Below, piece by piece: positions 17,056 to 36,523 of a stretch of DNA of 62,426 nucleotides. Below the pieces are notes generated by a model. It made no database searches, was not told where the DNA came from, and saw nothing but the letters and a program-made list of their open reading frames with translations. Where the stretch lies: the NCBI GenBank assembly GCA_031423755.1, contig JANPGC010000174.1, positions 1 through 62,426 of the forward strand, written 5' to 3'. The position numbers and the translations under genes are program-made. The stretch is from Phyllobacteriaceae bacterium (GTDB lineage: Bacteria; Pseudomonadota; Alphaproteobacteria; Rhizobiales; Rhizobiaceae). Within the stretch, counting starts at the first letter, position 1. Each line of letters begins with the position of its first letter.

Positions 17056-17080
17056 AACGTTTTGATGCGCAAATTGTTCC
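17056..17080 (-). promoter_or_regulatory. EcfG-type GSR promoter (GGAAC-N16-CGTT) upstream of hup
   Basis: Plus strand reads AACG-ttttgatgcgcaaatt-GTTCC, an exact match on the minus strand. Sits 10 nt after the vapC stop and about 100 nt upstream of the hup ATG. Confidence 0.6.
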
Positions 17081-20454: not shown

Positions 20455-20565
20455 TAGCTGACCCTCGTCTTCCAACACTGAATGCAATCCAACCGCATCT
20501 CTAACCCATGTGACCAGTTCGGAGTTTCTGTTTGGCACAATTTGGAGCATGCCCGCCGACCGGAC

Positions 20566-20658: not shown

Positions 20659-20683
20659 GGAACTTTTTCAAATTTGCGGCGTT
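20659..20683 (+). promoter_or_regulatory. EcfG-type GSR promoter (GGAAC-N16-CGTT) for phyR
   Basis: GGAAC-tttttcaaatttgcgg-CGTT, 75 nt upstream of the phyR ATG. phyR autoregulation via EcfG is the known arrangement. Confidence 0.7.
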
Positions 20684-20757: not shown

Positions 20758-21552
20758 ATGAACCTTTCGTCGACAGTTTCGCCACACCTGCCCTTTTTGC
20801 GGCGGTTTTCGCGTGCGCTCACGGGCAGCCAGCATAGCGGCGATTCTTACGTTGCGGCGGTTCTCGATTCGATCATCGCAGACCCCGCGTGCCTTAAATC
20901 CGCGACGGACATCCGTGTTTCCCTTTACCGGCAGTATTGCAGGATTTGGCAATCCGTTTCGTTCAACATGAAATCCAATGAGATTGCCGATCCGTTTGGC
21001 GGGCGGGCGCATCAAACGATGGCCCCGATATCACCCAAAGCACGCGAAGCATTTCTGCTTTCAGGCGTTGAAGGCTTTGGCGTTGACGATATCGGCCTGA
21101 TTTTGGACTGCAGTGCCGAGCAGGTCGAATTGCTGCTCGCCGAGTCTGCGGCCTCCTTTGCTTCTCAAGCAGCCACCGATGTTCTTGTGATCGAAGATGA
21201 GCCGATCATCGCAATGGACATTGAAGACATACTGCAATCCCTTGGCCATCGCATCACCGGCATTGCGCGCACGGAAAATCAGGCGCTTGAGCTCGCGGCC
21301 CGCGAACCGCCGGGCCTCATTCTTGCCGATATCCAGCTTGCAGACGGCAGTTCCGGCTTGGACGCGGTGACCAAAATCCTGCAGCGGTTTTCCGTGCCGG
21401 TCATTTTCATCACCGCATTTCCGGAGAGCGTCCTGACCGGAGAGCGCCCTGAACCGGCATTCCTGATCAGCAAGCCTTATTTGCCCGGCATGGTCAAGGC
21501 GGTTATCAGCCAAGCGCTTCTCACGCATGTCGAGTCAAGAGCAGCGGCTTAA
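20758..21552 (+). CDS. phyR: PhyR, anti-anti-sigma factor / response regulator of the general stress response
   Basis: 264 aa from ATG 20758. N-terminal sigma-like domain (PHLPFLRRFSRALTGSQHSGDSYV) and C-terminal receiver (VLVIEDEPIIAMDIEDIL...LILADIQLADGSSG), which is the diagnostic PhyR architecture. Confidence 0.9.
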   Translation: MNLSSTVSPHLPFLRRFSRALTGSQHSGDSYVAAVLDSIIADPACLKSATDIRVSLYRQYCRIWQSVSFNMKSNEIADPFGGRAHQTMAPISPKAREAFLLSGVEGFGVDDIGLILDCSAEQVELLLAESAASFASQAATDVLVIEDEPIIAMDIEDILQSLGHRITGIARTENQALELAAREPPGLILADIQLADGSSGLDAVTKILQRFSVPVIFITAFPESVLTGERPEPAFLISKPYLPGMVKAVISQALLTHVESRAAA

Positions 21553-21571: not shown

Positions 21572-21597
21572 GGAACCTTTGGCATGTCTGCCGCGTT
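21572..21597 (+). promoter_or_regulatory. EcfG-type GSR promoter (GGAAC-N17-CGTT) for the 98-aa ORF
   Basis: GGAAC-ctttggcatgtctgccg-CGTT, starting 20 nt after the phyR stop and 59 nt upstream of ATG 21656. Confidence 0.65.
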
Positions 21598-21655
21598 ACA
21601 AATGGTGCTGCGTTCAAGCGCGCGCGAACCCAAGATGCTGTTGAAGGAGAACGCC

Positions 21656-21952
21656 ATGTATTCTGCCAAAGACTATGATCAGGCGCTTCTGACGCCCGAG
21701 AGCATTTTCAATGATCCGATGGATGTGGTGACGACAGAGTCGCTTACGCCCGAGCAGAAAATGACTGTTCTGAAACGTTGGGAGGCCAACGCGCGGGATC
21801 TGGAGGTCGCCTCCAGCGAGAGCATGACGGGCGGCGCCCTGTCGAAACTGGATGAAGTCGGCGCTGCGATCGCTGTGCTGATGGAGCGCGAGCCGGTTGA
21901 CGAGAACACTGTCGTTCAGGTGCAGGCGAGCCCGTCGAGCACCGCTGCATGA
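21656..21952 (+). CDS. Small acidic hypothetical protein (98 aa), predicted GSR target
   Basis: ATG 21656 has a strong GAAGGAGAA RBS. The ORF-track upstream extension overlaps the promoter. I recognise no family. Confidence 0.6.
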   Translation: MYSAKDYDQALLTPESIFNDPMDVVTTESLTPEQKMTVLKRWEANARDLEVASSESMTGGALSKLDEVGAAIAVLMEREPVDENTVVQVQASPSSTAA

Positions 21953-21980
21953 CATCACCGAGACGGTTTGACTGACTTCG

Positions 21981-22005
21981 AGGCGGACCTGCGGGCCCGC
22001 CTTTC
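21981..22005. terminator. Possible hairpin between the convergent small ORF and galU
   Basis: AGGCGG-acctgcgggc-CCGCCT followed by TTC. Weak U-tract. Confidence 0.3.
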
Positions 22006-22052
22006 ATGCATGCCGCACTTTCCGCGCTTGCAGCAGCTTCCGGCAGGTCTGG

Positions 22053-23015
22053 TCAGGCCGCAGCGGGCTGTTTTCTTGTAACCGGCATCCCCGCCCGCTC
22101 GTTGGCGTTGACGACACGCAGCGCCTCAGACGCGAGGGACCGCTGCAACAGTTTCTCAAGTCCAACCCTGAATGCGGGGCCGATGTCATCGCGCATCAAT
22201 CCATGAGCCACGTTTGCCATCAGGAACCCGAGCTTGTCGCCGCAGTCGAAGGTCACGCCTTCGAACTTGCAGCCCCAGAACGGCTGCTCGGCCATCAGCG
22301 CAATCATAGCATCAGTCAGCTGAATTTCGCCGCCGGCGCCTGGCTTTGCAGTCTCTATTTTGCCAAAGATTTCCGGCTGCAAAATGTAGCGGCCGGATAT
22401 GATGTGATTGGAAGGTGCTTGCTCGCGCTCCGGCTTCTCGATCATGCCTTTGATCGCCAGCGCCAAACCATCAGTTTTGCTGAAATCGACCACACCATAG
22501 CGGCTGACCTCTGCCCAAGGCACTTCTTCAACGGCAATGATGTTGCCGCCGCCTGTCTCGGCGTAGATGTCCATCATCTGTTTGAGGCAGCCGGGCTCGG
22601 ATTGCATCACCATATCAGGCAGCAACAGCGCGAAGGGCTCATCGCCAATCATGTTGCGCGCGCACCACACTGCATGCCCGAGCCCCAGCGGCTCCTGCTG
22701 CCGGGTGAAACTGGTCTGGCCCGCGCTAGGCAGATCATTTTCCAACAGGCCAAGCTCTTCCGATTTGCCGCGCTTGCGCAGGACAGATTCAAGCTCGGTC
22801 TGCTTGTCGAAGTGATCTTCAATCGCATTCTTGTTGCGCCCGGTGACAAAAACAAAATGCTCGATGCCCGCCTCGCGCGCCTCATCGACCGCCATCTGAA
22901 TGACGGGCCGGTCGACAATTGTCAGCATTTCCTTGGGGATAGCCTTTGTCGCGGGAAGGAACCTCGTTCCAAGTCCTGCCACGGGAAAAACGGCTTTGCG
23001 GATGCGCTTGCGCAT
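22053..23015 (-). CDS. galU: UTP--glucose-1-phosphate uridylyltransferase
   Basis: 320 aa. The N-terminus [34 protein letters not shown] is the canonical GalU motif. Confidence 0.9.
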
Positions 23016-23102
23016 GGAGCGGCTCCTGAATTTGAACGGGCGGCTTCAAGGTTGATTGAGTACTCGCAAACCGCTTGAGCGACACACTGCCCACGCTACC
23101 GA

Positions 23103-23127
23103 AACGCGTTTGAAGCGACTTCGTTCC
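23103..23127 (-). promoter_or_regulatory. EcfG-type GSR promoter (GGAAC-N16-CGTT) for galU
   Basis: Plus strand reads AACG-cgtttgaagcgacttc-GTTCC, exact on the minus strand, 88 nt upstream of the galU ATG. Confidence 0.6.
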
Positions 23128-23174
23128 TGCTGTCCGTCACATTCGTGAAATGCGACAAGATCAGGAAACGGACT

Positions 23175-24215
23175 TCATGCAGCCGTTGCCAGGATGGATG
23201 TGAACGTTGCCCGCGTGATGGTGATCGTCGTGCCACCGCTGCTCGTTTCGGTCTCAACCCTGCCATCCAGCTGCTTGGCCAAAGCTTGAACAAGCGTTGT
23301 GCCAAGGCCGCCTTTTTTGCCGACGGCTCTTTCCTTGATACCGCCGCCATTGTCGGACACGGACAGTTTCCAGTCTTCGCCGCTCACCTCATATCCGACC
23401 ACAACGCGGCCATCCTGCACGTCTAGCGGAAAGGCGTGCTTGAGCGCATTCATCACAAGCTCTGTAACGATCAAACCGATGCTGACCGCCTGCTGCGACG
23501 GCACCGCGCCGTCGTCTGCGACAACGGTGAGGGAAATTGGTCTGCGCTCCCGGATCATGGAGTCTTTGAGCGTCTCGCACAGCGTCGTCAAATAGTCGCT
23601 GACTTTGATATTATCGCCCGTTCCGGACGCCCGCAGGTGCTGCTGCAGCGTCGCGATGGACATCACCCTGCGATGCGCATCCTCAAGATGGCCGCGCGAT
23701 TCCTCCGAACTGACAGAGCGCGCCTTGAGCATCAGTATGCTGGCGACGATCTGCAGGCTGTTGGCCACCCGGTGGCTCATCTCGGAGAGAAGCGTGTCTT
23801 TTTGCTCGCTGAGAGTGATAAGCTGCCGCTCTGCTGCCCGGCGGGTGGTGACGTCCTCAATCGCGAGCAGAAGAGTGCTGTTGAGGTCGCCCTCGTAAAA
23901 GACTTTGCGCGCATTCAGCATCATCGTGCGCTGGCCGATGTGCGGAAAGTTTTGCTCGATCTCAAAATGGTCCATTACGCCGTGTTCGGGCAGGATCCGG
24001 TCAAGCAGATCGCGCAAATCGGGGTTGTTCCATTCACCTGAGCCAAGGTCATAAATTTTGTGACCCAATGTCTCGCCAGCGGTGGTCTGGAAAGTTGAAT
24101 AGAAGGAACGGCTGGCGGAAACCACGCGCAGGTCGCCGTCAAGCACGAGCAGAGAATCCCGCACTGTATCGACCATGGCCTGTGCCAATGCACGTCCGTC
24201 CTCAATGGTGTCCAT
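23175..24215 (-). CDS. PAS + HisKA_2 sensor histidine kinase (PhyK/LovK-like)
   Basis: 346 aa. N-terminal PAS domain, H-box SHRVANSLQIVASIL (HisKA_2), and a HATPase_c G-boxes region (DNGGGI, GGLGTTLV). Confidence 0.85.
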   Translation of the reverse strand: MDTIEDGRALAQAMVDTVRDSLLVLDGDLRVVSASRSFYSTFQTTAGETLGHKIYDLGSGEWNNPDLRDLLDRILPEHGVMDHFEIEQNFPHIGQRTMMLNARKVFYEGDLNSTLLLAIEDVTTRRAAERQLITLSEQKDTLLSEMSHRVANSLQIVASILMLKARSVSSEESRGHLEDAHRRVMSIATLQQHLRASGTGDNIKVSDYLTTLCETLKDSMIRERRPISLTVVADDGAVPSQQAVSIGLIVTELVMNALKHAFPLDVQDGRVVVGYEVSGEDWKLSVSDNGGGIKERAVGKKGGLGTTLVQALAKQLDGRVETETSSGGTTITITRATFTSILATAA

Positions 24216-24246
24216 AAGGTTCTTTCAGATCTGCGCATTCCCGAAT

Positions 24247-24271
24247 TGAACCACTTTACAGCTATTGCGTT
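24247..24271 (+). promoter_or_regulatory. Near-consensus EcfG-type motif (TGAAC-N16-CGTT) upstream of the RHH gene
   Basis: One mismatch in the -35 element. Located 80 nt upstream of ATG 24352. Weaker than the eight exact sites. Confidence 0.3.
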
Positions 24272-24351
24272 ACATTGACAGAACTAATCGCGCACCCATT
24301 GAAATTAGAATTAAAACATCCATATACCATCCACACAGATGGAAAGTTGTC

Positions 24352-24771
24352 ATGTCAGCAGAAATTTTGCGCCTTCACGACCGCATCAGCGAAAGCGAAA
24401 AGATCACGATCAACCTTGGATATGTTGATCTCGGTCACATCGACCTTTTGGTGCAGGACGGCTTCTACTCCAACCGGACCGATTTCATCCGCACAGCGAT
24501 CCGCCACCAATTGGCAAACCACGCCGATCAGGCGAAAAAGCTGATTGTGCGTCAGACGCTTGATCTTGGCCTCCGCCGCTACACCAAGGCAGATCTGGAA
24601 GCAGTGAAGGCGTCGGGAGAAACCCTGAGCATCAAGGTGCTTGGCTTGGTTACCATTGACACAGATGTGCCGCCAGCGCTCGCAGCAGAGACCATTCAAT
24701 CCATAACAGTCCTTGGCGCGCTGCATGCGGCCAAAGACGTGAAGGCCGCCCTGTCCGGGCGGATCAGCTGA
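24352..24771 (+). CDS. Ribbon-helix-helix (CopG-like) domain protein, 139 aa
   Basis: Start trimmed to ATG 24352. The RHH pattern is KITINLGYVDLGHIDLLVQDGFYSNRTDFIRTAIRHQL. Confidence 0.65.
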   Translation: MSAEILRLHDRISESEKITINLGYVDLGHIDLLVQDGFYSNRTDFIRTAIRHQLANHADQAKKLIVRQTLDLGLRRYTKADLEAVKASGETLSIKVLGLVTIDTDVPPALAAETIQSITVLGALHAAKDVKAALSGRIS

Positions 24772-24809
24772 ACCGCAACCCGACTTAACCCCACTTAAGG
24801 CAATAATTC

Positions 24810-25883
24810 ATGACCTTTGACATCAAATCCACCATGGCTGAGGCCTTGCGTCTCACGAAAGCTGGCCGTCTTGACGACGCGACCTCGGCGATCCAGCAGG
24901 CATTAACCGGCAAACACACCGAGCCGGACAAATCGCGCCAGCGCCGTCCGCTGGCCGATACAGTCAAGGCGCTTGGCACATTGCGAAAAGCCGCAACGGT
25001 GCGCAAAACCACGCCAATTGACGCGCCTGTCTCTCTCAAAACGCCCGGCGGCGCGCAATTCCTGACCAAGACCTTCTCCTGCCATGCCGGCAAGCGCGAG
25101 TATAAGCTCTACATCCCCTCCCATCAGCCCCAAGGCCGACGCCCGCTGCTGATCATGCTGCATGGCTGCACCCAGAACGCCGATGACTTTGCTGCCGGCA
25201 CCCGCATGAATGCGCTGGCTGAGGAGCACGGCATGCTTGTCGCCTACCCGGTCCAGCCAAAGACCGCCAATGTGTCCGCCTGCTGGAACTGGTTCAATCC
25301 GGGCGACCAGCAACGCGGTGCTGGCGAACCGGCTATTCTTGCCGGGATCACCCAAGAGATTGCCGCAGGGCACAAGATTGATCCAACCCGGATCTACGTC
25401 GCGGGTCTGTCTGCTGGCGGAGCGATGGCGATGGTCATGGGCGCGGCCTACCCCGCGCTCTATGCCGCCGTCGGCGTGCATTCCGGCCTGCCCTATCAGT
25501 CGGCTAATGACGTGATGTCCGCACTCAACGTCATGCGCAGCGGTACGGCCAATGCCCGTCCGCAGCCGAATATCCGCACCATTGTCTTTCACGGCGACGC
25601 TGACACAACCGTCCACCCGGCAAATGCCGAAAAGATCGCGGACAGAGTGAAAATGCGCCAAAGCGTCACGCAAGGCCAAGCACGGGTTCCCGGCGGGCGA
25701 AGCTATGCCCGGACGGTTATTGAAAGCGCAGAAGATCAAACTGCCACGGTTGAACTCTGGATGATCAAGGGCGCAGGCCACGCATGGGCGGGTGGCAGTG
25801 CTGACGGCAGTTACACCGACCCCAAAGGACCGGACGCCTCTGCTGAAATGCTGCGCTTCTTTCTGTCGGACTACACATCCTGA
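24810..25883 (+). CDS. Esterase, PHB-depolymerase family (LpqC-like alpha/beta hydrolase)
   Basis: 357 aa. Motifs LLIMLHGCTQNADDFA, WNWF and nucleophile elbow GLSAGGAM are typical of the extracellular PHB-depolymerase esterase family. Confidence 0.8.
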   Translation: MTFDIKSTMAEALRLTKAGRLDDATSAIQQALTGKHTEPDKSRQRRPLADTVKALGTLRKAATVRKTTPIDAPVSLKTPGGAQFLTKTFSCHAGKREYKLYIPSHQPQGRRPLLIMLHGCTQNADDFAAGTRMNALAEEHGMLVAYPVQPKTANVSACWNWFNPGDQQRGAGEPAILAGITQEIAAGHKIDPTRIYVAGLSAGGAMAMVMGAAYPALYAAVGVHSGLPYQSANDVMSALNVMRSGTANARPQPNIRTIVFHGDADTTVHPANAEKIADRVKMRQSVTQGQARVPGGRSYARTVIESAEDQTATVELWMIKGAGHAWAGGSADGSYTDPKGPDASAEMLRFFLSDYTS

Positions 25884-25936
25884 GTTTGGTGCAATTGTTC
25901 GGACGCACGCTCAGAGCCAACGTTACCAAGACAAAT

Positions 25937-25967
25937 CGCCGCCGGTTGACCGGCGGCGTGTTGTTAT
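25937..25967 (+). terminator. Rho-independent terminator after the esterase gene
   Basis: CGCCGCCGG-ttga-CCGGCGGCG (9-bp GC stem) followed by TGTTGTTAT. Lies between convergent genes. Confidence 0.55.
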
Positions 25968-26018
25968 AACCGTGTTGCGTCGGCTGCCACGTAGCGAGCG
26001 CAGCGCCTGCTGCCACCG

Positions 26019-26510
26019 CTACATTGCCACTCTTGCATGCTGCGCGGCGTCTGTCTCCGAGGGCCTCTCGCCCTTGATATAGGCCTTGAGCGCCGTCATC
26101 GCATAGCTTACGCCTTCCAAACCGGAATTGTCCCAATACTCGGCGTCTGTCGGATCGATCTTCATGATGACCAGCGATGGATCCTCTTTCCCCTCCGGGA
26201 ACCACACTTTCCACGCTTCCGACCACAGCCTGTCGATCAAGGCGGGGTCGGTCGAAAGTTCCGCGGTGCCCTGCAGCGAAACATAGACGGACCCGTCCTG
26301 CATGATCAGCGTCACGTCCGGATTGATGGCGATATCGCGCAGCTTTGCAGAATCGAGTGATGTGGCAAAATACAGTCCGCCGTCCTCGCCGATTTCGGCA
26401 ATGGCCATCGGCCGCGCATGCATTGATCTGTCGCCTGAGGTGGTAATCATCATGGCGGTCGAAAAGCCCTTGAGGAGATCAACAAGGTGGCGTTTTGGCT
26501 GATGGTTCAT
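26019..26510 (-). CDS. Pyridoxamine-5'-phosphate-oxidase-like general stress protein 26 family
   Basis: 163 aa. PNPOx-like split-barrel sequence type (FSTAMMITTSGD...HARPM...YFATS..S.K...I..NP.V). Confidence 0.75.
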   Translation of the reverse strand: MNHQPKRHLVDLLKGFSTAMMITTSGDRSMHARPMAIAEIGEDGGLYFATSLDSAKLRDIAINPDVTLIMQDGSVYVSLQGTAELSTDPALIDRLWSEAWKVWFPEGKEDPSLVIMKIDPTDAEYWDNSGLEGVSYAMTALKAYIKGERPSETDAAQHARVAM

Positions 26511-26547
26511 GGTTCAAAATCCTGCTTCAGTTGGCTACTGCAAGTGA

Positions 26548-26572
26548 AACGGACTCGGCTCGATATGGTTCC
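26548..26572 (-). promoter_or_regulatory. EcfG-type GSR promoter (GGAAC-N16-CGTT) for the Gsp26-like gene
   Basis: Plus strand reads AACG-gactcggctcgatatg-GTTCC, exact on the minus strand, 38 nt upstream of ATG 26510 and 21 nt after the ndvB stop. Confidence 0.65.
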
Positions 26573-26592
26573 GAAGACCGCCTGTCACACCG

Positions 26593-29500
26593 CTAGGCTG
26601 TGGCCAGTGGCAAGCCAATTGCATGGACTTTTCCATCGTTAGCCAACGTGATCAGAAACTCGCCCGGCCCGGCCATCTCGACACCCGCAGGCAGCGCAAT
26701 ATCCTGTGCGAGGTCGCGCGAAATGCTGATGTCGTAACGGGACTCGCCAATCTTTACACTGACGTCGAAGCCCGGCCATTCGGCAGGAATGCACGGCTTG
26801 ACGCGCAGCTTTCCGCCTTCTCGTGTGACTCCCAGTATCGCCTCAAGCCCGGCGCGATGCATCCAGCTGGCGGAACCCGTGTACCAGGTCCAACCGCCGC
26901 GCCCGATATGCGGCGCAACGGAATAGACGTCTGCCGCCATGACATAGGGCTCCACACGATATCGCGCGGCGTCTACCGGCGTGCGGGAATGGTTGATCGG
27001 ATTGAGCATCGAGAACAGCTGCATCGCGCGTTCAGACTGACCAAGTTTCGCATGGGCAAAAATCGACCAGATGACACCATGCGTATACTGTCCGCCATTC
27101 TCGCGGATGCCCGGCGGGTAGGCTTTGACGTAGCCCGGCTCTTGCGCTGATTTGTCGAACGGCGGCGTGAATAAAAGCGCCAGACCATCATCGGGGCGCA
27201 CGAGCTGGCGCCAGGATTGCTCCATCGCCGCCGCCGCGCGTTCCGGTGAAGCACCGCCAGAGATCACGGCCCATGATTGCGCAATGGCGTCGATGCGGCA
27301 CTCCTCGCTTTGCGCTGATCCGAGCGGTGAGCCGTCGTCGAAAAATCCCCGCCGGTACCACTCGCCGTCCCAGCCATCCCTCTCAAGAGAGACAGACAAG
27401 TCAGCCATCCGCAGCTTCCACGCCGTGGCCCGGGCTCTGTCCCTGCGCTTTTCAGCCACGGGAATAAATGCCCGCAGCGTTGACAGCAGGAACCAGCCGA
27501 GCCAGACGCTCTCGCCCTTGCCGCCCTCGCCGACACGGTTCATGCCGTCATTCCAGTCGCCGGTGCCCATCAGCGGCAATCCGTGCGCTCCCTGTGCCAG
27601 GCTGCGGTCCAAGGCGCGCGCGCAATGCTCATACAAGCTGCCGCTCTCTTCCGGGATAGAAGGGACAAAAAACGCATCATGCGCGCCGGGCTCGAGATGC
27701 TGGCCATCAATGAACAGTATTTGCTCTTCCAAAATCGCCCTGTCGCCGGTGACCGTGAGATATTGGCTCACGCAATTGGCGAGCCAGACCATGTCGTCTG
27801 ATATCCGCGTTCTGACGCCTGCGCCCGTCTCCGGGAGCCACCAATGCTGGAAGTCGCCTTCAACAAATTGCCGTGAAGCAGCGCGCAGTATCTGTTCGCG
27901 CGCATAGTCCGGGCGGGTTATCAGCAGCGACAGAGAATCCTGCAGCTGGTCACGGAAACCATAGGCGCCGCTCGCCTGATAAAAGCCCGACCTTGCCCAC
28001 ATCCTGCATGCAAGGGACTGATAGAGCAGCCAGCCGTTCATCATGATGTCAAATGACCGATCCGGCGTCCTGACTTGGACTGCGCCAAGCGTGTCGCGCC
28101 AGAAGGCTTTCACGTCGGCCCATACCGCGTCCGATGGCTTCTGCCGCGATTGCAGGATCAGCTCCTGGGCCGCGCCTTCGTTTGTCGCAGCGCCAAACAG
28201 TATGGTGACCTCGTCCGTCTCTCCGGGTGCAATCTCCAATGTCGTCTGCATTGCGCAGCACGGGTCCAGCCCCGCACCGGTGCGCTTGGACAGGACCACG
28301 CCAGCAGCCAGCGCCTTCGGGTTGGCCAGACTTCCGAACGCGCCGAGAAACTCGCGCCGGTCGCCCGTCCACGCTGTCTGACGCCCAAGCATGTCCGCAA
28401 AGGCAACCTGACCGCCAGACTGTATGCTCCACGGGTTCCTGGCAAACAGCGCCCCCGTCTTCTCATCTATCGCAGTGGTGATGAACGGAGCAGATGCCGC
28501 CCGCGGCGGGCCGAGCACCAGATCGGCATAAAATGTGACTGTGACACGCATCGTTGCGGCAGAACGGTTGGTCAGCTTGAGGCGCGAAATCTTGACCGAG
28601 CCCTCCAGTGGCACCGTCTGCAAAAGCTCAAGCTGAAGATCATCCCTCTCGCGTTCGAAGATTGAATAGCCGAAACCGTGCCGGGCCGTATGCGTTCCAT
28701 CCGCGGAATTCAGCGGTTTGAGCGTCGGCGATACCAAGCTTCCGTCGGCGTCATTCCTGACAAAGATCGCCTCACTCGCCGGGTTGCTGACCGGGTCATT
28801 CGTCCATTGCGTCAGCTGATTTTCGCGGCTGTTGCCAAACCATGTGTAGCCGCCGCCATCTGCCGAGCATTGAAATCCGAAGGTTTTGTTGGCAATCACG
28901 TTCAACCAGGGCGCAGGCGTTGGCATGGCGCTGCTCACTTGCGTGACATACTCGCGCCCATCATCCAGAAAGCTTCCGATGCCATTGTGAAATTCCCCGT
29001 TTTGCGTCTCTTTGCCCTGAAGCTTGAGGGATCGCCGCACTGGAAGCATGGCCGTGGCCGGAAGCGTCACAGGCTCCGGAGCGTCGGTAATCCGGCTCAA
29101 TTGACTGGCCAGACCGCCGCGCCGGGCAATCATCACCACGCGGGCCACGGCAGGCAGTACCCGCTGGCTTTCCGATGGCAGGAGATCGGCGCGCAGCGTG
29201 AACACATCGCCGGCTCCCGCATTTGATCCGTCCACCTTAGGGGTTGTGCTCTTTCGCACCAGCGCCTCAATCGCGACCTGCAAATCCTGCGTATACGAAG
29301 ACATGCGGTCGTTCACAATGATGACATCGACCGCCAGCCGCTTGGTTTTCCAGTACTCAAACGCGCGCAAAATATCGTGGACGAGATCGATATGCTCAAT
29401 GTCGTCGATCCGCACCAACAGGATCGGCCGGTCGCCGGAAATGCCATGCGGCCACAGCGATGACTGCGGCCCGATGTTGTCCTGCAGAAACCTTGATGAC

Positions 29501-32500
29501 GGCCGAAGCGCAGCGCTCGGATGGATCAAATGGCTCGCCAGCTGCTGATACAGATGTGCTTCTTCATGACTGATCGACAAATGACGCAGCTGGATTTGCG
29601 CTTGCGTCCACGCCAGCGTCAGCGCCCGCTCATACGCGGCTTCCTGACGATGACGGTCAACAAGATCGAGCACCGCCTCGCGCGAGGCGGCGGCGACCAT
29701 CCAAAGCGTGCATTTCACTTGCCTACCAGCAGGGATGCGCAGCCGCAGCTTGAACGCAAAAATCGGGTCAAGCACCGCGCCAAGGGTCTTGGACAGCGCT
29801 TGGCCGGTTACAAACGCCTGCGGGCTGCGGCGCGAATTTCCGATCCCGACAAAGCGCTCGCGATCGGTTTCATACTCAAGCTCGCCAACTTTCAACCCAT
29901 CCCAGACCAGAAACTGAGCCGTCCAGACTTCAGGTTCCGAAGGAGACCGCCTGCGACGCGTGGCGATCAGCGTCTCAAGCTCCGGCACATACTCCGTTTC
30001 AACAAACATCTTTGAGAATGCCGGATGGGCATTGTCGGCAGCGCGCGGCGCAAGGACCAATTCGGCATAAGAAGTCAGCTCGACATCCCTTGCTGACGAC
30101 GAACGGTTGGTGATGGTCACACGGCGCGCCTCAGCGTCGTCTTCGGGCGAAACCAGGCACTCCAGCGACGTGGTGAAGGAACCGTCCGTGCGGCCGATCT
30201 CGGCCTTGTCCTCGCTGAACGAAGCTTGGTAGAAATCCGGCTTGCGCCCAAGCGGCATGAAGCCCGCCGACCATTTCTGTTCGGTTCTGGCATCGCGCAC
30301 GTAAAAGAAACTGCCCCAGTCGTCGCTCACACTGTCTTCGCGCCAGCGGGTAAGCGCGATGTCGTTCCATGTGCTGTAACCCCCGCCTGCCGCGTTCAGC
30401 ATGACGCTGTAGCTGCCGTTTGACATCAGGTGGGTCACCGGTGTGCCCAACTCTGCGAAGCCAACGCGCCGGACCGTCGGCGCAAGCGGTCCGGCGGCGG
30501 CGTTGCCAGCGGACGTTTCCGCGCGTGCAAGCATGATCGGCACATCGCGCGGCGCGCGCTCCTGCAGCAAAAGCTCGGTCGCGCGGACAATCGGCTCGGC
30601 GTGGAACCGGTCCCGCATCTGGCCGTCTTTCACGGTGTTGAGTATCGCAGTGATCGTCATGCCCTGATGATGGGCAAAATAGGCCCGCACAATGGCTGCC
30701 GTCTCGCCCATTTGCAGGCGCGAGGGTGTGAAGTCCAGCGCTTCGTAAAATCCATAAATGCCATCGGCGCCAAGGGCTGCAAGGCGTTCATAATTCCTGA
30801 CGGCCATTTTTGGCGAAACCATCGATGCCAGCCCGGTAGCATAGGGCGCGATCACGAGATTTTCCGACAGACCCCGCTTCAAGCCAAGGCCGGGAATGCC
30901 GAAGTTGGAATACTGATAGGTGAATTCAATATCACGGGCGTTGAAGGCAGATTCCGAAACACCCCAGGGAACCCCGTGGCTGTTTCCATAGTCGATCTGA
31001 CGCCGCACGATGAGCCGTGTTGTCTGGTCAAGCAGGCTGCCGAACGGCGCGCGCATCACGAGTGATGGCATGAGATACTCGAACATCGAGCCGGACCACG
31101 AGACAAGCGCCGCCCCGCCCTTGACCGCCGTCACCGTCCTGCCCAGCCGGAACCAATGGCGGGTGCGAAGGTCGCCCTTGGCGATGGCAAAGAAGCTGCC
31201 AAGCCGCGCCTCGGACGCCAGCATGTCGTAACAGCTTTCGTCCCGCATCGCCTCTGGAACGCGGAACCCGATGGAAAAGAGCAGGCGTTGGGGATCAAGC
31301 AGAAATCCGAACTCCATTCGATCGGCAAGCGAGCGCGATTCGTGCGCCAGTTCTTCCAACCGCTCGCGCTGTTTGAGCAGCGCTTCATGGCCTATCGAAC
31401 CATCACGGAAATGGCTTTCAATTGTCTGCTGCAGAGTCTCGGCCCACGCAGGCAATTGCCGCCCTGCCGGCGAAGCCAGCGCGGTGTCGAACTCTTTCAC
31501 CGCATCGAGAATTCCATTTGCCTGAACGGCAAATTCAATCAGCCGCATCGGCAACAGCTCGGGCGTCTGCCTGGCGTTGTTGATCCTGTCACGCAATGCG
31601 GCAAGCTTTGTTTCAATACCTTTGCGCATGGCCCGCAAATTGCGGCGGTCATCCGGAATGGCAGCCAGACCGTCTGCCAGAATATCAACAACGTCACTCA
31701 AGCCGTCGAGCTTTGACAGATTGTCTGGCGGCTCGCTTTTCCATTGGTCGCAATAGTTCGCCAGTGCAATGAAATGCCCGGCAAGATTGCCGCTGTCGAC
31801 AGTCGAGACATACTTTGGCTCAAGCGGCAGAAGCGTCTGCGTGTCGTACCAATTATAGAGATGCCCCCTGTAGGCCTCCATGCGCCGCACGGTGTCGATG
31901 GTCTTCTCCAAACGCGAGACCGCATCGCCAAGCCCAAGCCAGCCAAACTCCTTGGCGCTGGCGACGGCGAGAAGGTAAAGGCCGATGTTGGTAGGCGACG
32001 TCCGGTGCGCGATTCTCGGATCGGGATCTTCCTGGAAATTGTCCGGCGGAAGCATCGAATCTTCGCTGGTGACAAATGTCTCGAAAAACCGCCAGGTCTT
32101 GCGCGCCACGCGGCGCAGCGCCTTGATGTCTTGCGGAGCAATTGTTTCAGCGTCCACCAGCTTGGGACGCTGACTGAGCCAATGGGCGCAAGCGGGCGCC
32201 AGGAGCCAAGCCAGGGCAAAGGGTGTGATCGCAATTGACGTGGCGTCCGCTCGCAATACGGCAATGGCAAGAGCAATGAGGCCGAGCAGAATGCTGCCGG
32301 TCATCATCCGGAACAGAACGCCTATTCCTGGCGTCGGGCTGGAAGCGGCTTGCGCTGCGGTTGTCCATTCGAGCATGTTCTTGCCGCTGATCTTCAGCCG
32401 GTAGATTGTGCGCAACACCGCGTCGCCCATCAGCCAAGCCTGATGGCCAAGGAACACCAAGGTGGCAAGCGCATAGGCCAGCGCATGGCCGAAATCGTCC

Positions 32501-35112
32501 AGATTCGCCCGGACCTGACTGTCGATGGTTACACCTTTGCGTTTCGGCACTGATCCGAGAACGGAGGGTAGAAAGACAGGAAACGCACCGATCAATGCCA
32601 TCGCCATCGTCCAGCGGACGGCAGTTTCTGCGGGCAGCAGAAGCCAGCCAAGCATAAAGCTCAAGACAAGCGCGATAGGCGTTAACGACCGCCTCAGATT
32701 ATCCGCCATCTTCCAGACGCCCAACGCCGGAATGGCCGCCGTTGAAACGCCCTTCGTTCCAAACCATTGCGAGCCGAGCCAAGGCAGCAGTTGCCAGTCG
32801 CCACGAACCCAGCGGTGCTGGCGGGACGCTGCAACGGTGTAACGGTCCGGGTATTCCTCGACAACTTCGATGTCCGTGACCAGAGCGGAGCGCGCAAAAA
32901 CGCCTTCAAACAGATCGTGGCTCAGCATCGCGTTCTCAGGGATTTTGCCCTTGATCGCAGCTTCAAATGCCTCAATGTCGTAGATGCCTTTGCCGGCGAA
33001 TGACCCCTCTCCAAACAGGTCCTGATAGACATCCGACACGGCGAACACATAAGGATCAGTCCCGCGCGGCGTGGAAAATATGCGCTGGAACAAAGATCCA
33101 TTGTGGCCAGTCGGCAAGGAAGGCGTGACGCGGGGCTGCAACACGCCATAACCGCTCGTGACCCGCCCCAGATCAGCATCGAACACAGGCCGGTTGAGTG
33201 GATGCGCCAGCTTGCCGACGAGCCTGCGCGCGGCGTCTCGCGGCAGCTTTGTATCAGCATCAAGCGTCAGCACGAACCTGACCGCGTCCGGAATTTCGCC
33301 GCCAATTGTCGTGAAGCTTGTGTCTGCTGCACCCGTGAGCAGGCGGTTCAGCTCATGCAGTTTCCCGCGCTTGCGCTCCCAGCCCATCCACTTGTTTTCG
33401 AGGTCGTTCCATTTTCTGGAGCGGTGCAGCAAAAGGAAGCAATTGGTGTTGTGGTCTGCGTTAAGCCGGGCAATGCCAGCCAAGGCTTCGTTCAAAAGCT
33501 CATCGTCGCCGCCCCTTGTCTCGGTCGCGGAATCGGTCCAGTCGGTGACAAGCGCAAAGTAGAGCTCGCCGGCCGAATTGGAGAGATAATGCACCTCCAG
33601 CCGGTCGATCATTTCAGCAATGTCGTCGCGTGATGTCAAAAGTGTTGGAACCGCAACGAGGGTCCGATAATGCGCCGGCACGCCATCGCGCAAGGCCAGA
33701 CCTGGAATGACCGAGGCCTCCAACATTCGCGTCACGGCGAAATTCACCAGCGAAAGTGCAGTCTCAACAAGCGGCAGAAGCGCTGCAACGGCGAGTGCGA
33801 TAAGAAGCACGGTTGAGGTTTCAACTGCAAAAACTTTGCTGAACAACGCCCAGAACACTGCCAGCGTCACCAAAATGATCGCGCCGCCATAACCAGCCAG
33901 TCCCAGCGACTTCAGTGTTGTTCTGACGCGCCGAAGCAGTGGCGGCTTGAAATTCAACTGCTGTTCAAATTCTGCGCGCCCCGCGCCAATGAGAAAATAA
34001 CCCGGATCCCGCTGCGCCGAACCGCCGTTTCCGGCAGCGTTTGCGGCTTTGGCCAACGCCGTGCGCGCAACGTCAAGTTCATCCGAGGCGGAACCGCGCG
34101 AAAGCTCTTCAACGGCGGTGCGGTAGAGAGTCCTGCTTGGAAAATCCATCTCGCCGAAATCAGACTTGTCCCGCAGCTCGCGGTCGACAAGGCTCACCTC
34201 GTCAAACCAGTTCTCCCAGTTGACGTCCGACACGTAACGCATGCTGGTGATGATGTTGCGGACGGTCACATTGGCAGAACTCTGACGATGATGCTCATCA
34301 GTGACGGTAGACTCGAGTGAGTGGCCTTGCATTTCAACGCGGCGTTTGAGCCATTCCAGCGAATGGGCGGCCAAACCGTCCTGATCGCGCAGCCTGTGGA
34401 TGAGCTGGACAGCAAATGCGTTGGAAAGATCCTTGCCTTCCAGCTGCCGGTACTGCTCCTCTGCTGCGGCCGGGATGGCTTGCGGCTGCAAGACCATGTC
34501 TGCAAGCCTGTCCGCCTGTTCGCGGGCGCGCCGGGCGGCCGTTATCCGCACCGATATCCGGCGAAGATTCTCGATCAGGATCAGCCGCAAACTGATCGCT
34601 ACCGCCCATAGCTCGCCAATGGTAAGCGGCTGCACCTGCTGATACTCATTGACGAAATCGCTCAGCAGTGCGGGATTGAAGGCGCTGTCCGTGTGCGCCA
34701 CATGGGCCCAGACCAAGCCGAAAATCCGTGGATGTCCGGCAAGGGGACCGGTGCCAAGTTTCGGCAACTGGCTATAGTAGCCTGGAGGCAAATCGGCTCT
34801 GGTCTGGCGTATCTGCTCTTCGACGAGATGATAGTTGTCGATCAGCCATTCGGCAGCAGGTGTTATCGGCTTGCCCTCACCGATTGCCACGGTGATTTCC
34901 CGGACGCATTTCAGCAACTCGGCAGCGTTGTCGTTCAGGCGGTTGATAATGGAGTGGACCCGCTGCGGATTATCGGTCACCGTCTGCGATTCAGCCAGTG
35001 TGCGGGCGTGCTGCTTTGAGCGTTCGGGACCGAATATTTCCGCGCTGATAGGCTGGCTGTCGTCCCACTGCGCCTTTGGCCGGTCAATTTGCTGCATAAG
35101 CTTTTGAAACAT
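26593..35112 (-). CDS. ndvB: Cyclic beta-1,2-glucan synthase (GT84 + GH94 domains), 2839 aa
   Basis: Giant ORF with NdvB/ChvB/Cgs organisation and size: N-terminal TM-flanked glycosyltransferase and C-terminal GH94 phosphorylase-like region. Start set to ATG 35112, because the ORF-track TTG at 35193 lies 8 nt from the -10 of the promoter. Confidence 0.93.
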   Translation of the reverse strand: MFQKLMQQIDRPKAQWDDSQPISAEIFGPERSKQHARTLAESQTVTDNPQRVHSIINRLNDNAAELLKCVREITVAIGEGKPITPAAEWLIDNYHLVEEQIRQTRADLPPGYYSQLPKLGTGPLAGHPRIFGLVWAHVAHTDSAFNPALLSDFVNEYQQVQPLTIGELWAVAISLRLILIENLRRISVRITAARRAREQADRLADMVLQPQAIPAAAEEQYRQLEGKDLSNAFAVQLIHRLRDQDGLAAHSLEWLKRRVEMQGHSLESTVTDEHHRQSSANVTVRNIITSMRYVSDVNWENWFDEVSLVDRELRDKSDFGEMDFPSRTLYRTAVEELSRGSASDELDVARTALAKAANAAGNGGSAQRDPGYFLIGAGRAEFEQQLNFKPPLLRRVRTTLKSLGLAGYGGAIILVTLAVFWALFSKVFAVETSTVLLIALAVAALLPLVETALSLVNFAVTRMLEASVIPGLALRDGVPAHYRTLVAVPTLLTSRDDIAEMIDRLEVHYLSNSAGELYFALVTDWTDSATETRGGDDELLNEALAGIARLNADHNTNCFLLLHRSRKWNDLENKWMGWERKRGKLHELNRLLTGAADTSFTTIGGEIPDAVRFVLTLDADTKLPRDAARRLVGKLAHPLNRPVFDADLGRVTSGYGVLQPRVTPSLPTGHNGSLFQRIFSTPRGTDPYVFAVSDVYQDLFGEGSFAGKGIYDIEAFEAAIKGKIPENAMLSHDLFEGVFARSALVTDIEVVEEYPDRYTVAASRQHRWVRGDWQLLPWLGSQWFGTKGVSTAAIPALGVWKMADNLRRSLTPIALVLSFMLGWLLLPAETAVRWTMAMALIGAFPVFLPSVLGSVPKRKGVTIDSQVRANLDDFGHALAYALATLVFLGHQAWLMGDAVLRTIYRLKISGKNMLEWTTAAQAASSPTPGIGVLFRMMTGSILLGLIALAIAVLRADATSIAITPFALAWLLAPACAHWLSQRPKLVDAETIAPQDIKALRRVARKTWRFFETFVTSEDSMLPPDNFQEDPDPRIAHRTSPTNIGLYLLAVASAKEFGWLGLGDAVSRLEKTIDTVRRMEAYRGHLYNWYDTQTLLPLEPKYVSTVDSGNLAGHFIALANYCDQWKSEPPDNLSKLDGLSDVVDILADGLAAIPDDRRNLRAMRKGIETKLAALRDRINNARQTPELLPMRLIEFAVQANGILDAVKEFDTALASPAGRQLPAWAETLQQTIESHFRDGSIGHEALLKQRERLEELAHESRSLADRMEFGFLLDPQRLLFSIGFRVPEAMRDESCYDMLASEARLGSFFAIAKGDLRTRHWFRLGRTVTAVKGGAALVSWSGSMFEYLMPSLVMRAPFGSLLDQTTRLIVRRQIDYGNSHGVPWGVSESAFNARDIEFTYQYSNFGIPGLGLKRGLSENLVIAPYATGLASMVSPKMAVRNYERLAALGADGIYGFYEALDFTPSRLQMGETAAIVRAYFAHHQGMTITAILNTVKDGQMRDRFHAEPIVRATELLLQERAPRDVPIMLARAETSAGNAAAGPLAPTVRRVGFAELGTPVTHLMSNGSYSVMLNAAGGGYSTWNDIALTRWREDSVSDDWGSFFYVRDARTEQKWSAGFMPLGRKPDFYQASFSEDKAEIGRTDGSFTTSLECLVSPEDDAEARRVTITNRSSSARDVELTSYAELVLAPRAADNAHPAFSKMFVETEYVPELETLIATRRRRSPSEPEVWTAQFLVWDGLKVGELEYETDRERFVGIGNSRRSPQAFVTGQALSKTLGAVLDPIFAFKLRLRIPAGRQVKCTLWMVAAASREAVLDLVDRHRQEAAYERALTLAWTQAQIQLRHLSISHEEAHLYQQLASHLIHPSAALRPSSRFLQDNIGPQSSLWPHGISGDRPILLVRIDDIEHIDLVHDILRAFEYWKTKRLAVDVIIVNDRMSSYTQDLQVAIEALVRKSTTPKVDGSNAGAGDVFTLRADLLPSESQRVLPAVARVVMIARRGGLASQLSRITDAPEPVTLPATAMLPVRRSLKLQGKETQNGEFHNGIGSFLDDGREYVTQVSSAMPTPAPWLNVIANKTFGFQCSADGGGYTWFGNSRENQLTQWTNDPVSNPASEAIFVRNDADGSLVSPTLKPLNSADGTHTARHGFGYSIFERERDDLQLELLQTVPLEGSVKISRLKLTNRSAATMRVTVTFYADLVLGPPRAASAPFITTAIDEKTGALFARNPWSIQSGGQVAFADMLGRQTAWTGDRREFLGAFGSLANPKALAAGVVLSKRTGAGLDPCCAMQTTLEIAPGETDEVTILFGAATNEGAAQELILQSRQKPSDAVWADVKAFWRDTLGAVQVRTPDRSFDIMMNGWLLYQSLACRMWARSGFYQASGAYGFRDQLQDSLSLLITRPDYAREQILRAASRQFVEGDFQHWWLPETGAGVRTRISDDMVWLANCVSQYLTVTGDRAILEEQILFIDGQHLEPGAHDAFFVPSIPEESGSLYEHCARALDRSLAQGAHGLPLMGTGDWNDGMNRVGEGGKGESVWLGWFLLSTLRAFIPVAEKRRDRARATAWKLRMADLSVSLERDGWDGEWYRRGFFDDGSPLGSAQSEECRIDAIAQSWAVISGGASPERAAAAMEQSWRQLVRPDDGLALLFTPPFDKSAQEPGYVKAYPPGIRENGGQYTHGVIWSIFAHAKLGQSERAMQLFSMLNPINHSRTPVDAARYRVEPYVMAADVYSVAPHIGRGGWTWYTGSASWMHRAGLEAILGVTREGGKLRVKPCIPAEWPGFDVSVKIGESRYDISISRDLAQDIALPAGVEMAGPGEFLITLANDGKVHAIGLPLATA

Positions 35113-35200
35113 GGACAGCGGCTTTCCCTTCAAGTGGAAACTGATGAGGCCGCAAATCCAGTCGCGCCTATGGACGAGGGTTTCCCAGCTCAATCCGATT

Positions 35201-35225
35201 AACGGTTGAGCGCGCTATTGGTTCC
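35201..35225 (-). promoter_or_regulatory. EcfG-type GSR promoter (GGAAC-N16-CGTT) for ndvB
   Basis: Plus strand reads AACG-gttgagcgcgctattg-GTTCC, exact on the minus strand, 89 nt upstream of ATG 35112. Confidence 0.65.
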
Positions 35226-35375
35226 GGCAACCAGGAAAGCCGCCTCCTGAATCTGCGTTTGCGGGTTCAACAGTCTGCCAGACGGCGGCACGTGCTTTCG
35301 TCCTGCCCGATCAAGCGAAAACCGGCGCACCAGGTAAATTGGCGCGCCGGGCCATACAAGTATGAATTGCAATCA

Positions 35376-35957
35376 TCAGATGACGCGGCGGGTTCGTTCG
35401 ATCTCAGCTTCTTTGTCCGCCATGGACTCTTCGGCTGTTTCAAACTTGGTCCATCCGCTGTTGCGGTACTCGGTGCCGAGTTCAGTCGGATCAAGCGGGC
35501 GATGCTCATCAAGGATTGAATGGACCTGATCAAGTTGACCGTCACCTGATCGCACGGAAAGCAGCGTGCCGCCGCGGCGAACGGCTTCAGAGTAGACCTG
35601 CGCATGCTCGTCATCAAGACCGGAACTGACCAGCGATCCCACTATTCCGCCCGTCGCACCACCTGCAACAGCGCCAACGGCGGTGCTCACGAGCCAGCCG
35701 GCGGCGACAACCGGTCCGACACCGGGAATAGCCATAAGTCCAAGGCCAGTCAGCAGGCCAGCTGCACCACCGACTGCCGCGCCGATGCCCGCTCCGGTTC
35801 CAGCTTCTGAAACGCCGTCGTCATTTGCAGGGCGTTCGTCATTTTTGTTGTTGGCAATCATGCTGATCTCGGACGAGTGGATGCCCGCCGCTTCAAGCGC
35901 TCTGACAGCGCGCTTTGCCTGATCGTAATTGTCGAAAACTTTGGTAATGGTTTGCAT
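35376..35957 (-). CDS. General stress protein 17M (YflT)-like domain protein with glycine-zipper membrane segment
   Basis: 193 aa. N-terminus VFDNYDQAKRAVRALEAAGIHSSEISMIANN followed by a Gly/Ala-rich zipper (GAGIGAAVGGAAGLLTGLGL...). Confidence 0.7.
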   Translation of the reverse strand: MQTITKVFDNYDQAKRAVRALEAAGIHSSEISMIANNKNDERPANDDGVSEAGTGAGIGAAVGGAAGLLTGLGLMAIPGVGPVVAAGWLVSTAVGAVAGGATGGIVGSLVSSGLDDEHAQVYSEAVRRGGTLLSVRSGDGQLDQVHSILDEHRPLDPTELGTEYRNSGWTKFETAEESMADKEAEIERTRRVI

Positions 35958-36498: not shown

Positions 36499-36523
36499 AA
36501 CGCCGCTGACGGCACACGGTTCC
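36499..36523 (-). promoter_or_regulatory. EcfG-type GSR promoter (GGAAC-N16-CGTT) for the EF-hand / YflT-like gene pair
   Basis: Plus strand reads AACG-ccgctgacggcacacg-GTTCC, exact on the minus strand, 57 nt upstream of ATG 36442. Confidence 0.65.

Follow-up and report, generated by a model that had tools for sequence, protein, structure and literature searches.

The window, meaning the whole 62,426-nt stretch of DNA that was analyzed, carries on its minus strand (26593..35112) an ndvB gene with Glycoamylase and GH94 Pfam domains (PF10091, PF06165 and PF17167). Residues 56–2801 of the encoded protein align with the Agrobacterium tumefaciens Cgs structures 8RF0 and 8RF9 at ∼2596 bits, and the architecture is that of one ∼2800-residue chain with an N-terminal glycosyltransferase, a middle Glycoamylase-like cyclization region and a C-terminal GH94 phosphorylase. 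The window NdvB is thereby predicted to make cyclic β-1,2-glucan from UDP-glucose. Cyclic β-1,2-glucans are osmoprotectants of the cell envelope and factors in host interaction, and their synthesis is mostly viewed as being regulated post-transcriptionally. A second gene on the same strand, galU (22053..23015), encodes a 320-residue UTP–glucose-1-phosphate uridylyltransferase that scores 341.2 bits against the curated equivalog model TIGR01099 (cut-off of 326.8) and matches PDB entry 2UX8 (2.8e-105). The identities assigned to both genes in the original prediction hold by domain, profile and structure matches. The exporter gene ndvA was not seen in the window, and the big flanking open reading frames encode catabolic enzymes and transporters.

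Two start codons, TTG 35193 and ATG 35112, have been considered for ndvB. The gene-caller product initiated at the ATG (P0001) has 2839 residues, NdvB homologues have 2832–2844, and the first methionine is invariant in an alignment of these homologues (A1). In addition, the ATG and a GGAG-type ribosome-binding site line up across seven loci, and TTG 35193 lies only 8 nt past the −10 element of the promoter motif described below. Homologue lengths, the invariant first residue and the conserved ATG with its ribosome-binding site identify ATG 35112 as the true start of ndvB, as had been proposed.

Both genes lie behind an exact copy of the sequence GGAAC-N16-CGTT. The predicted σEcfG promoter of ndvB (GGAACCAATAGCGCGCTCAACCGTT) occupies 35201..35225 on the minus strand, with its −10 end 89 nt from the ATG; that of galU (GGAACGAAGTCGCTTCAAACGCGTT) occupies 23103..23127 on the same strand, with its −10 end 88 nt from the ATG at 23015. 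The original prediction had claimed one exact motif for each gene, ∼88–89 nt upstream of the ATG, and these positions and distances were recovered. Promoters recognized by σEcfG have GGAAC at −35 and CGTT at −10 with 16–17 nt between them, and lie between genes, in the orientation of the gene they serve and no more than ∼100–150 nt from its start, all of which was found at both sites. The published EcfG consensus is GGAAC-N17–20-GTT and is enriched <100 bp from coding starts (PMC6599016).

Six exact matches to GGAAC-N16-CGTT were counted in the window against an expectation of 0.55, and six or more were reached in none of 100 dinucleotide-preserving shuffles of the window. When N17 spacers were also counted, the number rose to eight, located between 17.0 and 36.6 kb, with the rest of the 62 kb empty. 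Each of the eight lies 5′ of a co-oriented gene. One of these is phyR (20758..21552, plus strand), which encodes the 264-residue anti-anti-sigma response regulator of the general stress response (NF006623, 332 bits; cut-off of 240) and whose product aligns over residues 1–264 with 264-residue homologues from related loci. The predicted promoter of phyR (20659..20683, plus strand), 75 nt 5′ of the start at 20758, provided a positive control for the motif within the window itself. Divergent from phyR is a gene for a multi-PAS HWE histidine kinase (17935..20550, minus strand; start codon uncertain), preceded by GGAAC-N17-CGTT at 20566–20591 (minus strand). A conserved 98-residue open reading frame after phyR (21656–21952, plus strand) also follows GGAAC-N17-CGTT (21572..21597, plus strand), an arrangement repeated in the related locus L081.

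The remaining motifs are all on the minus strand. A HU-family gene (16677–16955) lies behind a match at 17056..17080. The predicted promoter of a GSP26-like gene (26019–26510; Pyrid_ox_like PF16242, 5e-43) occupies 26548..26572 and starts 21 nt past the ndvB stop codon, and a motif was found at the equivalent position in seven loci. Just upstream of ndvB, an operon encoding a secreted 149-residue protein (35993–36442) and a YflT-domain stress protein (35376–35957) follows a match at 36499..36523; operon and promoter are arranged identically in L081. A second histidine kinase gene of the HisKA_2/HWE type (23175..24215, minus strand), PhyK-like by NF051872 (3.6e-32), lies directly upstream of galU, and its counterpart was likewise called HisKA_2 in L081, L084 and L087.

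Conservation of the ndvB motif was assessed among relatives of this lineage, which is known only from metagenome-assembled genomes (MAGs) and metagenome contigs. Exact-protein look-ups and a clade-specific N-terminal NdvB alignment scanned against metagenomes yielded 25 related ndvB loci, Aestuariivirga MAGs included, with NdvB identity down to ∼63%. Within 200 nt 5′ of ndvB, the exact motif was present in 19 of the 25 loci and GGAAC-N16-NGTT in 22, with a distance from the −10 element to the ATG of mostly 87–92 nt. Loci with the motif were L003, L012, L081, L082, L083, L084, L086, L088 and L089, the metagenome loci L090–L098, L101 and L103, and the Aestuariivirga-cluster loci L104 and L105. 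In a non-circular count over 23 loci, the sense strand gave 17 strict and 20 relaxed matches and the antisense strand none, compared with a shuffle expectation per locus of 0.0008 (strict) and 0.0026 (relaxed); the strict motif was also absent from 127 kb of ndvB coding sequence. Negative-control loci were drawn from a search of a genome collection with a full-length NdvB alignment and, among the matches listed, were taxonomically scattered and mostly from non-Alphaproteobacteria. Among these listed matches, none of 22 other Alphaproteobacteria and none of 41 non-Alphaproteobacteria had the motif 5′ of ndvB. It was likewise missing there from the loci of Rhizobium, Agrobacterium, Mesorhizobium and further Alphaproteobacteria that were sampled.

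In an unanchored MAFFT alignment of seven ndvB loci, the GGAAC block was the sole invariant run upstream of the leader; at the −10 position only TT was invariant, with CGTT in six of the seven. Spacers, flanks and upstream neighbors vary, the gene upstream of ndvB belonging to the YflT, MocA-type oxidoreductase, ParB-methylase, EamA or short-chain dehydrogenase type according to locus, while the motif stays with ndvB. An anchored promoter alignment gave 97% identity in motif columns versus 52% in the spacer, a comparison that is partly circular because its rows were picked by motif; the claim of conservation therefore rests on the unanchored alignment and on the hit frequencies with their controls. 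Given that the −10 element is degenerate (AATT) in L085 and that L099, L100 and L102 have no motif 5′ of ndvB, the link between motif and gene is not universal even inside the clade. As judged from the loci compared, it is specific to this lineage. In L085 the linkage of ndvB to phyR is missing along with the promoter motif, a hint that the two are coupled. Absence of the motif from orthologous upstream regions had been named in the original prediction as an outcome that would count against it; the frequencies for ndvB, together with those for galU given below, favor the finding.

The gene neighborhood is conserved as well. In 10 relatives (L003, L012, L081, L083, L084, L086–L089 and L105) phyR lies <10 kb from ndvB, and in four of these (L087, L088, L089 and L105) nepR-ecfG adjoin phyR. 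The core autoregulated genes carry the motif, which lies 5′ of phyR in the window, 5′ of both phyR and nepR-ecfG in relatives, and as a divergent pair between phyR and nepR in L087. It was also found 5′ of genes typical of EcfG regulons, namely those for CsbD, YflT, GSP26-like, DUF892 and BA14K proteins. Given the excess of motifs, their conservation amid divergence, their presence on phyR and stress genes, and the embedding of ndvB and galU in the phyR locus, the coordinated σEcfG control originally predicted is supported. It is considered likely, with a probability of roughly 0.75, that a separate σEcfG-dependent promoter drives each of ndvB and galU and that both belong to the general stress regulon of an Aestuariivirga-related lineage of Hyphomicrobiales. 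A stronger proposal, which falls somewhat short of even odds, is that ndvB, ancestrally with galU right behind it, may form an integral module of the phyR-nepR-ecfG core locus, with the EcfG promoter as its sole promoter. Were this so, the general stress response would have in cyclic β-1,2-glucan a dedicated effector, induced by stress at the transcriptional level, the reverse of the classical constitutive transcription and enzyme-level control in Rhizobiaceae and Brucella.

The motif 5′ of galU was kept in all six loci in which the gene is linked to ndvB. Its −10 element reads CGTT in four of them (the window, L083, L086 and L087) and AGTT in the two closest relatives, L081 and L084; in the literature, EcfG-dependent genes include one for a general stress protein 26, and some of the promoters end in AGTT (PMC6599016). 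Since many downstream pathways depend on GalU, a central enzyme, its stress promoter could feed other sinks for UDP-glucose, such as trehalose synthesis by OtsA, exopolysaccharide or lipopolysaccharide, and the pairing with ndvB could be coincidental. Such a reading draws on the EcfG regulon of Bradyrhizobium diazoefficiens, which has otsAB, OtsA being a consumer of UDP-glucose (PMC8092242). However, galU lies within ∼12 kb of ndvB in six loci, and in L083 and L086 it directly follows the ndvB stop codon, with its own motif in the gap between the two genes. Moreover, no further UDP-glucose-consuming gene was seen in the motif-bearing island of the window, and a coincidental pairing is considered unlikely.

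An intrinsic-terminator-like hairpin (35322..35350, minus strand; an 11-pair stem, 9 of the pairs GC, with TTTT after it) closes the upstream YflT operon ∼100 nt 5′ of the ndvB promoter. A structured leader or riboswitch in the ∼80-nt ndvB 5′-untranslated region was considered and rejected, with RNAalifold predicting no pairs across 12 leaders; Rfam gave no matches anywhere in the window. The EcfG-type promoters could be real and yet merely additive to a housekeeping σ70 promoter, such that ndvB is constitutive, as it is in the classical rhizobia, and stress only boosts its expression. This would accord with the classical enzyme-level control of cyclic glucan synthesis in Agrobacterium and Sinorhizobium (PMC4167512). 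In a scan with an E. coli-type consensus, from which alphaproteobacterial sites could escape, no σ70-like promoter was found for either ndvB or galU, the ndvB scan covering 35050–35450 and with it the interval from the terminator to the ATG. The invariance of GGAAC as the only such run upstream of the leader, with CGTT in six of seven loci, also speaks against a purely additive role, which is judged rather improbable.

Motifs of this kind might instead be read by a different ECF sigma factor with GGAAC/CGT-type promoters, given that AAC at −35 and CGT at −10 are common to many members of the family. Neither ecfG nor nepR was found in the window by a weak search (tblastn with the sigma-like domain of PhyR, for which phyR was the sole match), and the small open reading frames of the window gave no Pfam sigma or NepR matches. 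Against this stand the agreement of the motif with the published EcfG consensus (PMC6599016) and its recurrence 5′ of phyR, nepR-ecfG and the stress genes listed above, which together make another sigma factor very improbable. The last alternative, that the matches arose by chance or were kept only through close kinship of the genomes, finds some footing in the common ancestry of the loci (NdvB identity is 85–87% for L081 and L084, and L090 = L091 and L096 = L097 are identical pairs) but is effectively refuted by 17–20 matches in 23 loci where ∼0.001 per locus is expected, by the empty antisense, coding and outside-clade controls (0 of 63 loci among the matches listed), and by the persistence of GGAAC and CGTT at an almost fixed spacing from the ATG despite diverged spacers, flanks and neighbors and NdvB identities of 63–66%.

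Under σEcfG control of ndvB and galU, stress signals would be picked up by HWE/HisKA_2 kinases (the locus encodes two), and these would phosphorylate PhyR. Phosphorylated PhyR would sequester NepR and so free EcfG, and EcfG-RNA polymerase would then initiate a few nucleotides 3′ of each CGTT element (35201 for ndvB and 23103 for galU), so that the leaders would be ∼80 nt long. We infer that EcfG would be the sigma factor used, that transcription would be stress-induced and that glucan levels would follow. As an in silico prediction, the assignment of ndvB and galU as lineage-specific additions to a known type of regulon is well supported. [quoted passage not shown]

The predicted promoters resemble those of σEcfG (ECF15; RpoE2, SigT or RpoE4) in S. 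meliloti, R. etli, B. diazoefficiens and S. melonis, where GGAAC-N16/17-CGTT lies no more than ∼100 nt from the coding start. The regulons are also alike in having the motif on phyR and in sharing the GSP26-like, CsbD, YflT, HU and HWE kinase families; they differ in that ndvB is here physically part of the phyR locus. Neither ndvB/cgs nor galU appears in the searchable portions of the S. meliloti RpoE2 and R. etli EcfG regulon tables or of the S. melonis and B. diazoefficiens regulon texts and tables, and galU has no mention in the main text of the B. diazoefficiens paper (PMC8092242). Two Rhizobium species have GGAAC-N17-AGTT ∼240 nt 5′ of ndvB, for which the R. etli regulon tables give no support. 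The open-access literature yielded no prior report linking ndvB, cgs, chvB or galU with EcfG, RpoE2 or PhyR.

The Pseudomonas aeruginosa NdvB is a different enzyme, which makes cyclic β-1,3-glucan and is not known to be a Cgs with a GH94 domain. Expression of its gene is RpoS-dependent (Hall et al. 2018, PMC5861823, as described in PMC9322497), and, as far as that secondary account goes, a general-stress/stationary-phase sigma factor acts on a periplasmic cyclic-glucan synthase gene in both cases, although the sigma factor is RpoS there and an ECF member is predicted here. In S. meliloti, FeuP/FeuQ controls ndvA, the cyclic glucan exporter gene (PMC3616915). That system likewise places a cyclic-glucan gene under transcriptional control by envelope or osmotic signaling, but through a two-component regulator acting on the exporter gene, whereas a sigma factor is predicted here to act on the synthase and its substrate supply. 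Finally, EcfG controls trehalose synthesis (otsAB) in B. diazoefficiens (PMC8092242), a comparable case of general-stress control over a glucose-derived osmoprotectant that needs UDP-glucose, the product being cytoplasmic trehalose in that organism and periplasmic cyclic glucan in the present lineage.

Six perfect GGAAC-N16-CGTT sites were identified by pattern search of the 62,426-bp window, compared with a mean of 0.55 in dinucleotide-preserving shuffles, none of 100 of which reached six. The two motifs of the original prediction, at 23103-23127(-) and 35201-35225(-), were both recovered, and the predicted spacing of ∼88-89 nt was reproduced, with the CGTT end lying 88 nt from the galU ATG (23015) and 89 nt from the ndvB ATG (35112). 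When N17 spacers were also allowed, eight strict (CGTT) motifs were obtained, all between 17.0 and 36.6 kb; the remaining ∼42 kb contained no strict N16 or N17 motif, and its flanking, motif-free parts encode catabolic enzymes and transporters. All eight motifs lie upstream of a co-oriented gene. These are an HU-family gene (16677-16955(-)), a multi-PAS HWE kinase gene (17935-20550(-); N17 motif at 20566-20591(-)), phyR (true start 20758(+); 332 bits on NF006623), a conserved 98-aa ORF that follows phyR on the (+) strand, galU, a Pyrid_ox_like gene of the “general stress protein 26” (GSP26) type (26019-26510(-); motif at 26548-26572(-)), ndvB, and an operon encoding a secreted 149-aa protein and a YflT-domain stress protein. 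A second HisKA_2 kinase, which is PhyK-like, is encoded directly upstream of galU.

The motif preceding the PAS-HWE kinase ends 16 nt before the called ATG at 20550, and the same gap was observed in a related locus, L084 (motif 17638-17663, called start 17679). The transcript would thus have almost no leader, unless translation in fact begins at a methionine further downstream. A PIN-domain toxin and Phd/YefM antitoxin pair (17090-17856(-)) lies between the HU gene and this kinase, within the island of stress genes. A near-motif, TGAAC-N16-CGTT, at 24247-24271(+) is located upstream of an RHH_8 gene (24265-24771(+)) and may be a weaker stress promoter; the RHH_8 regulator and its partner, a PHB-depolymerase-like esterase, are transcribed opposite to ndvB and galU.

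The assignments of both genes were confirmed. The ORF at 22053-23015(-) scored 341 bits on TIGR01099 (cut-off 326.8) and matched PDB 2UX8 at 3e-105, as expected for galU. The ndvB product contains Glycoamylase and GH94 domains, and residues 56-2801 align (∼2596 bits) with 8RF0 and 8RF9, the cryo-EM structures of Agrobacterium Cgs. Given that the recorded NdvB product of the contig (P0001) comprises 2839 aa, ndvB starts at ATG 35112, as proposed originally, and not at TTG 35193, which lies merely 8 nt past the -10 element. The closest homologues are of 2832-2844 aa with an invariant M1 column in a 24-sequence alignment, and when the DNA of seven loci is aligned, the ATG coincides across them, as does a GGAG-type ribosome-binding site.

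In Alphaproteobacteria, an HWE/HisKA_2 kinase acts on PhyR, and phosphorylated PhyR titrates NepR such that EcfG is released, an established partner switch (PMC3616915, PMC3892343, PMC6599016). Here, RNA polymerase would be guided by the released EcfG to the promoters of ndvB and galU, and UDP-glucose supply and the glucan synthase would rise together. If EcfG is indeed the sigma factor in vivo, both genes would be expected to be inducible by stress, with an effect on glucan levels. Motif anatomy, excess over chance, positional conservation and genomic linkage are direct observations. As far as sequence analysis reaches, the reading of both motifs as stress promoters is supported, and the probability that the two are genuine EcfG-dependent promoters is put at about three in four. 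A rather unlikely reading, though compatible with this explanation, is that galU supplies UDP-glucose sinks other than cyclic glucan, for example the OtsA-dependent synthesis of trehalose, a pathway under EcfG control in B. diazoefficiens (PMC8092242). That a housekeeping promoter was missed and EcfG only boosts expression is unlikely; no sigma-70-like promoter was detected upstream of ndvB or galU in a scan with an E. coli-type consensus, which could overlook alphaproteobacterial sites, and the YflT operon ends in a terminator-like hairpin at 35322-35350(-), ∼100 nt upstream of the ndvB motif. Use of the motifs by a different ECF sigma factor is highly improbable. The same motif is found at the autoregulated phyR promoter and upstream of textbook general-stress genes of the same genome and thus provides an internal positive control; ecfG was not found by a weak search of the window and is therefore presumably located elsewhere in the genome.

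Conservation was assessed in close relatives, obtained by exact-protein look-up of NdvB homologues (87-66% identity), and in further relatives found by scanning metagenomes with an N-terminal alignment specific to the clade; among the matches listed, a genome-collection scan added L003 and L012, both related, together with a large set of outgroups. The motif upstream of ndvB was present in related genomes, in strict form in 19 of 25 loci and in relaxed form (NGTT) in 22 of 25, which favors the finding. The strict motif, with a variable spacer, was observed in L081, L084, L082, L083, L086, L088, L089, L003 and L012, also in L090/L091, L092, L093, L095, L098, L101 and L103, and the motif was present in L104 and L105 of the Aestuariivirga cluster. 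The -10 element reads AGTT in L087 and L094, TGTT in L096/L097 and a degenerate AATT in L085, and the motif is missing upstream of ndvB in L099, L100 and L102. In most loci, 87-92 nt separate the -10 end from the ndvB ATG. In a non-circular count over the 200 nt upstream of ndvB in 23 clade loci (L104 and L105, added afterwards, gave 25), the sense strand yielded 17 strict and 20 relaxed motifs and the antisense strand none of either, with shuffle expectations per locus of 0.0008 and 0.0026, respectively. The sense strand of ndvB coding sequence (127 kb) held no strict and four relaxed motifs. Among the matches listed, neither form was found in 22 loci of other Alphaproteobacteria, an outgroup that includes Rhizobium, Agrobacterium, Mesorhizobium, Aquamicrobium, Chelativorans, Rhodoblastus and Azospirillum, or in 41 loci of non-Alphaproteobacteria. 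The genes upstream of ndvB vary by locus (YflT, MocA-type oxidoreductases, ParB-methylase, EamA, short-chain dehydrogenases); the motif thus accompanies ndvB rather than the neighboring genes. Chance or recent shared ancestry is a negligible explanation, the GGAAC block being invariant in an unanchored MAFFT alignment of seven loci although the mean column identity is 55%. In two Rhizobium species (L031 and L080), GGAAC-N17-AGTT occurs ∼240 nt upstream of the ndvB homologue, at the same distance in both; it is a candidate weak EcfG-type site or may be part of another transcript, and the R. etli regulon tables, in which ndvB is not listed, give it no support.

In ten loci (L081, L083, L084, L086, L087, L088, L089, L003, L012 and L105), phyR is found no more than 10 kb downstream of ndvB; among the matches listed, this linkage was found in none of the outgroup Alphaproteobacteria. 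Genes for NepR and an ECF sigma factor are divergent from phyR in L087 (21843-22798), L088 (20054-21017), L089 (20050-21026) and L105 (11752-12716). This position is occupied by the multi-PAS HWE kinase in the window (17935-20683), L081 and L084, implying that, in the sublineage of the window, the core sigma/anti-sigma pair has left the locus. L085 (about 9100-9214 and 17733-27733), the sole clade member with a different region downstream of ndvB and no phyR neighborhood, is also the member with the decayed -10 element (GGAAC-N16-AATT); in this single case, loss of linkage and of the promoter may be coupled. Relatives with 65-67% NdvB identity are labeled Aestuariivirga sp. in NCBI, and the window lineage is thus taken as an uncultured Aestuariivirga relative within Hyphomicrobiales. 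In L083 (21533-27765), a phage-type integrase gene and an MmeI-family restriction-modification gene adjoin phyR, a sign that a mobile element inserted next to the stress-response locus.

In promoter type and regulon logic, the window conforms to the EcfG (ECF15; RpoE2/SigT) general stress response, and the predicted ndvB and galU promoters extend this known regulon in a lineage-specific manner rather than constituting a novel type of system. That the regulon includes ndvB and galU appears to be new: no report linking ndvB, cgs, chvB or galU with EcfG, RpoE2 or PhyR was found in open-access full text, the S. meliloti RpoE2 supplementary tables hold no ndvB or exoN entry, and the R. etli EcfG regulon tables hold no ndvB, glucan or galU entry. 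NdvB of Pseudomonas aeruginosa is a beta-1,3-glucan synthase that is not known to be homologous to the enzyme of the window. Expression of P. aeruginosa ndvB is, in the account of a citing paper, RpoS-dependent (Hall 2018, as cited in PMC9322497) and, on that account, would be the nearest functional analogue, although the sigma family differs from EcfG. In S. meliloti, the cyclic-glucan gene with known transcriptional regulation is that of the exporter, ndvA, via FeuP (PMC3616915). With an 8.5-kb gene for a glucan synthase built into the stress-response locus, a testable regulatory link is predicted, purely in silico and for an uncultured lineage.

In all six loci in which galU is linked to ndvB, a motif lies 71-89 nt upstream of the galU start, with a -10 element of CGTT in the window, L087, L083 and L086 and of AGTT in L081 and L084. 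EcfG-dependent genes identified experimentally in Sphingomonas melonis include the AGTT type, and the derived consensus is GGAAC-N17-20-GTT (PMC6599016). In seven loci, an EcfG-type motif also begins 3-25 nt past the ndvB stop codon (window, 26548-26572(-); L081, 18536-18560; L084, 12100-12124; L083, 18544-18568; L086, 18528-18552; L087, 13135-13159; L012, 18571-18596), irrespective of the next gene, which is a GSP26-like gene, galU, a 66-aa ORF or, in L081, nothing annotated on that strand. In the window, this motif is the predicted promoter of the GSP26-like gene. Given that galU immediately follows the ndvB stop codon in L083 and L086, with the motif within the short gap, the seven loci suggest an ancestral promoter-ndvB-promoter-galU order that was later split by insertions; alternatively, a small conserved transcript is suggested. 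The motif in the ndvB-galU gap of L083 (18544-18570) reads as GGAAC-N16-CGTT on either strand (GGAACGGAAGCAGAGTTCCGACGTT and its near-palindromic complement).
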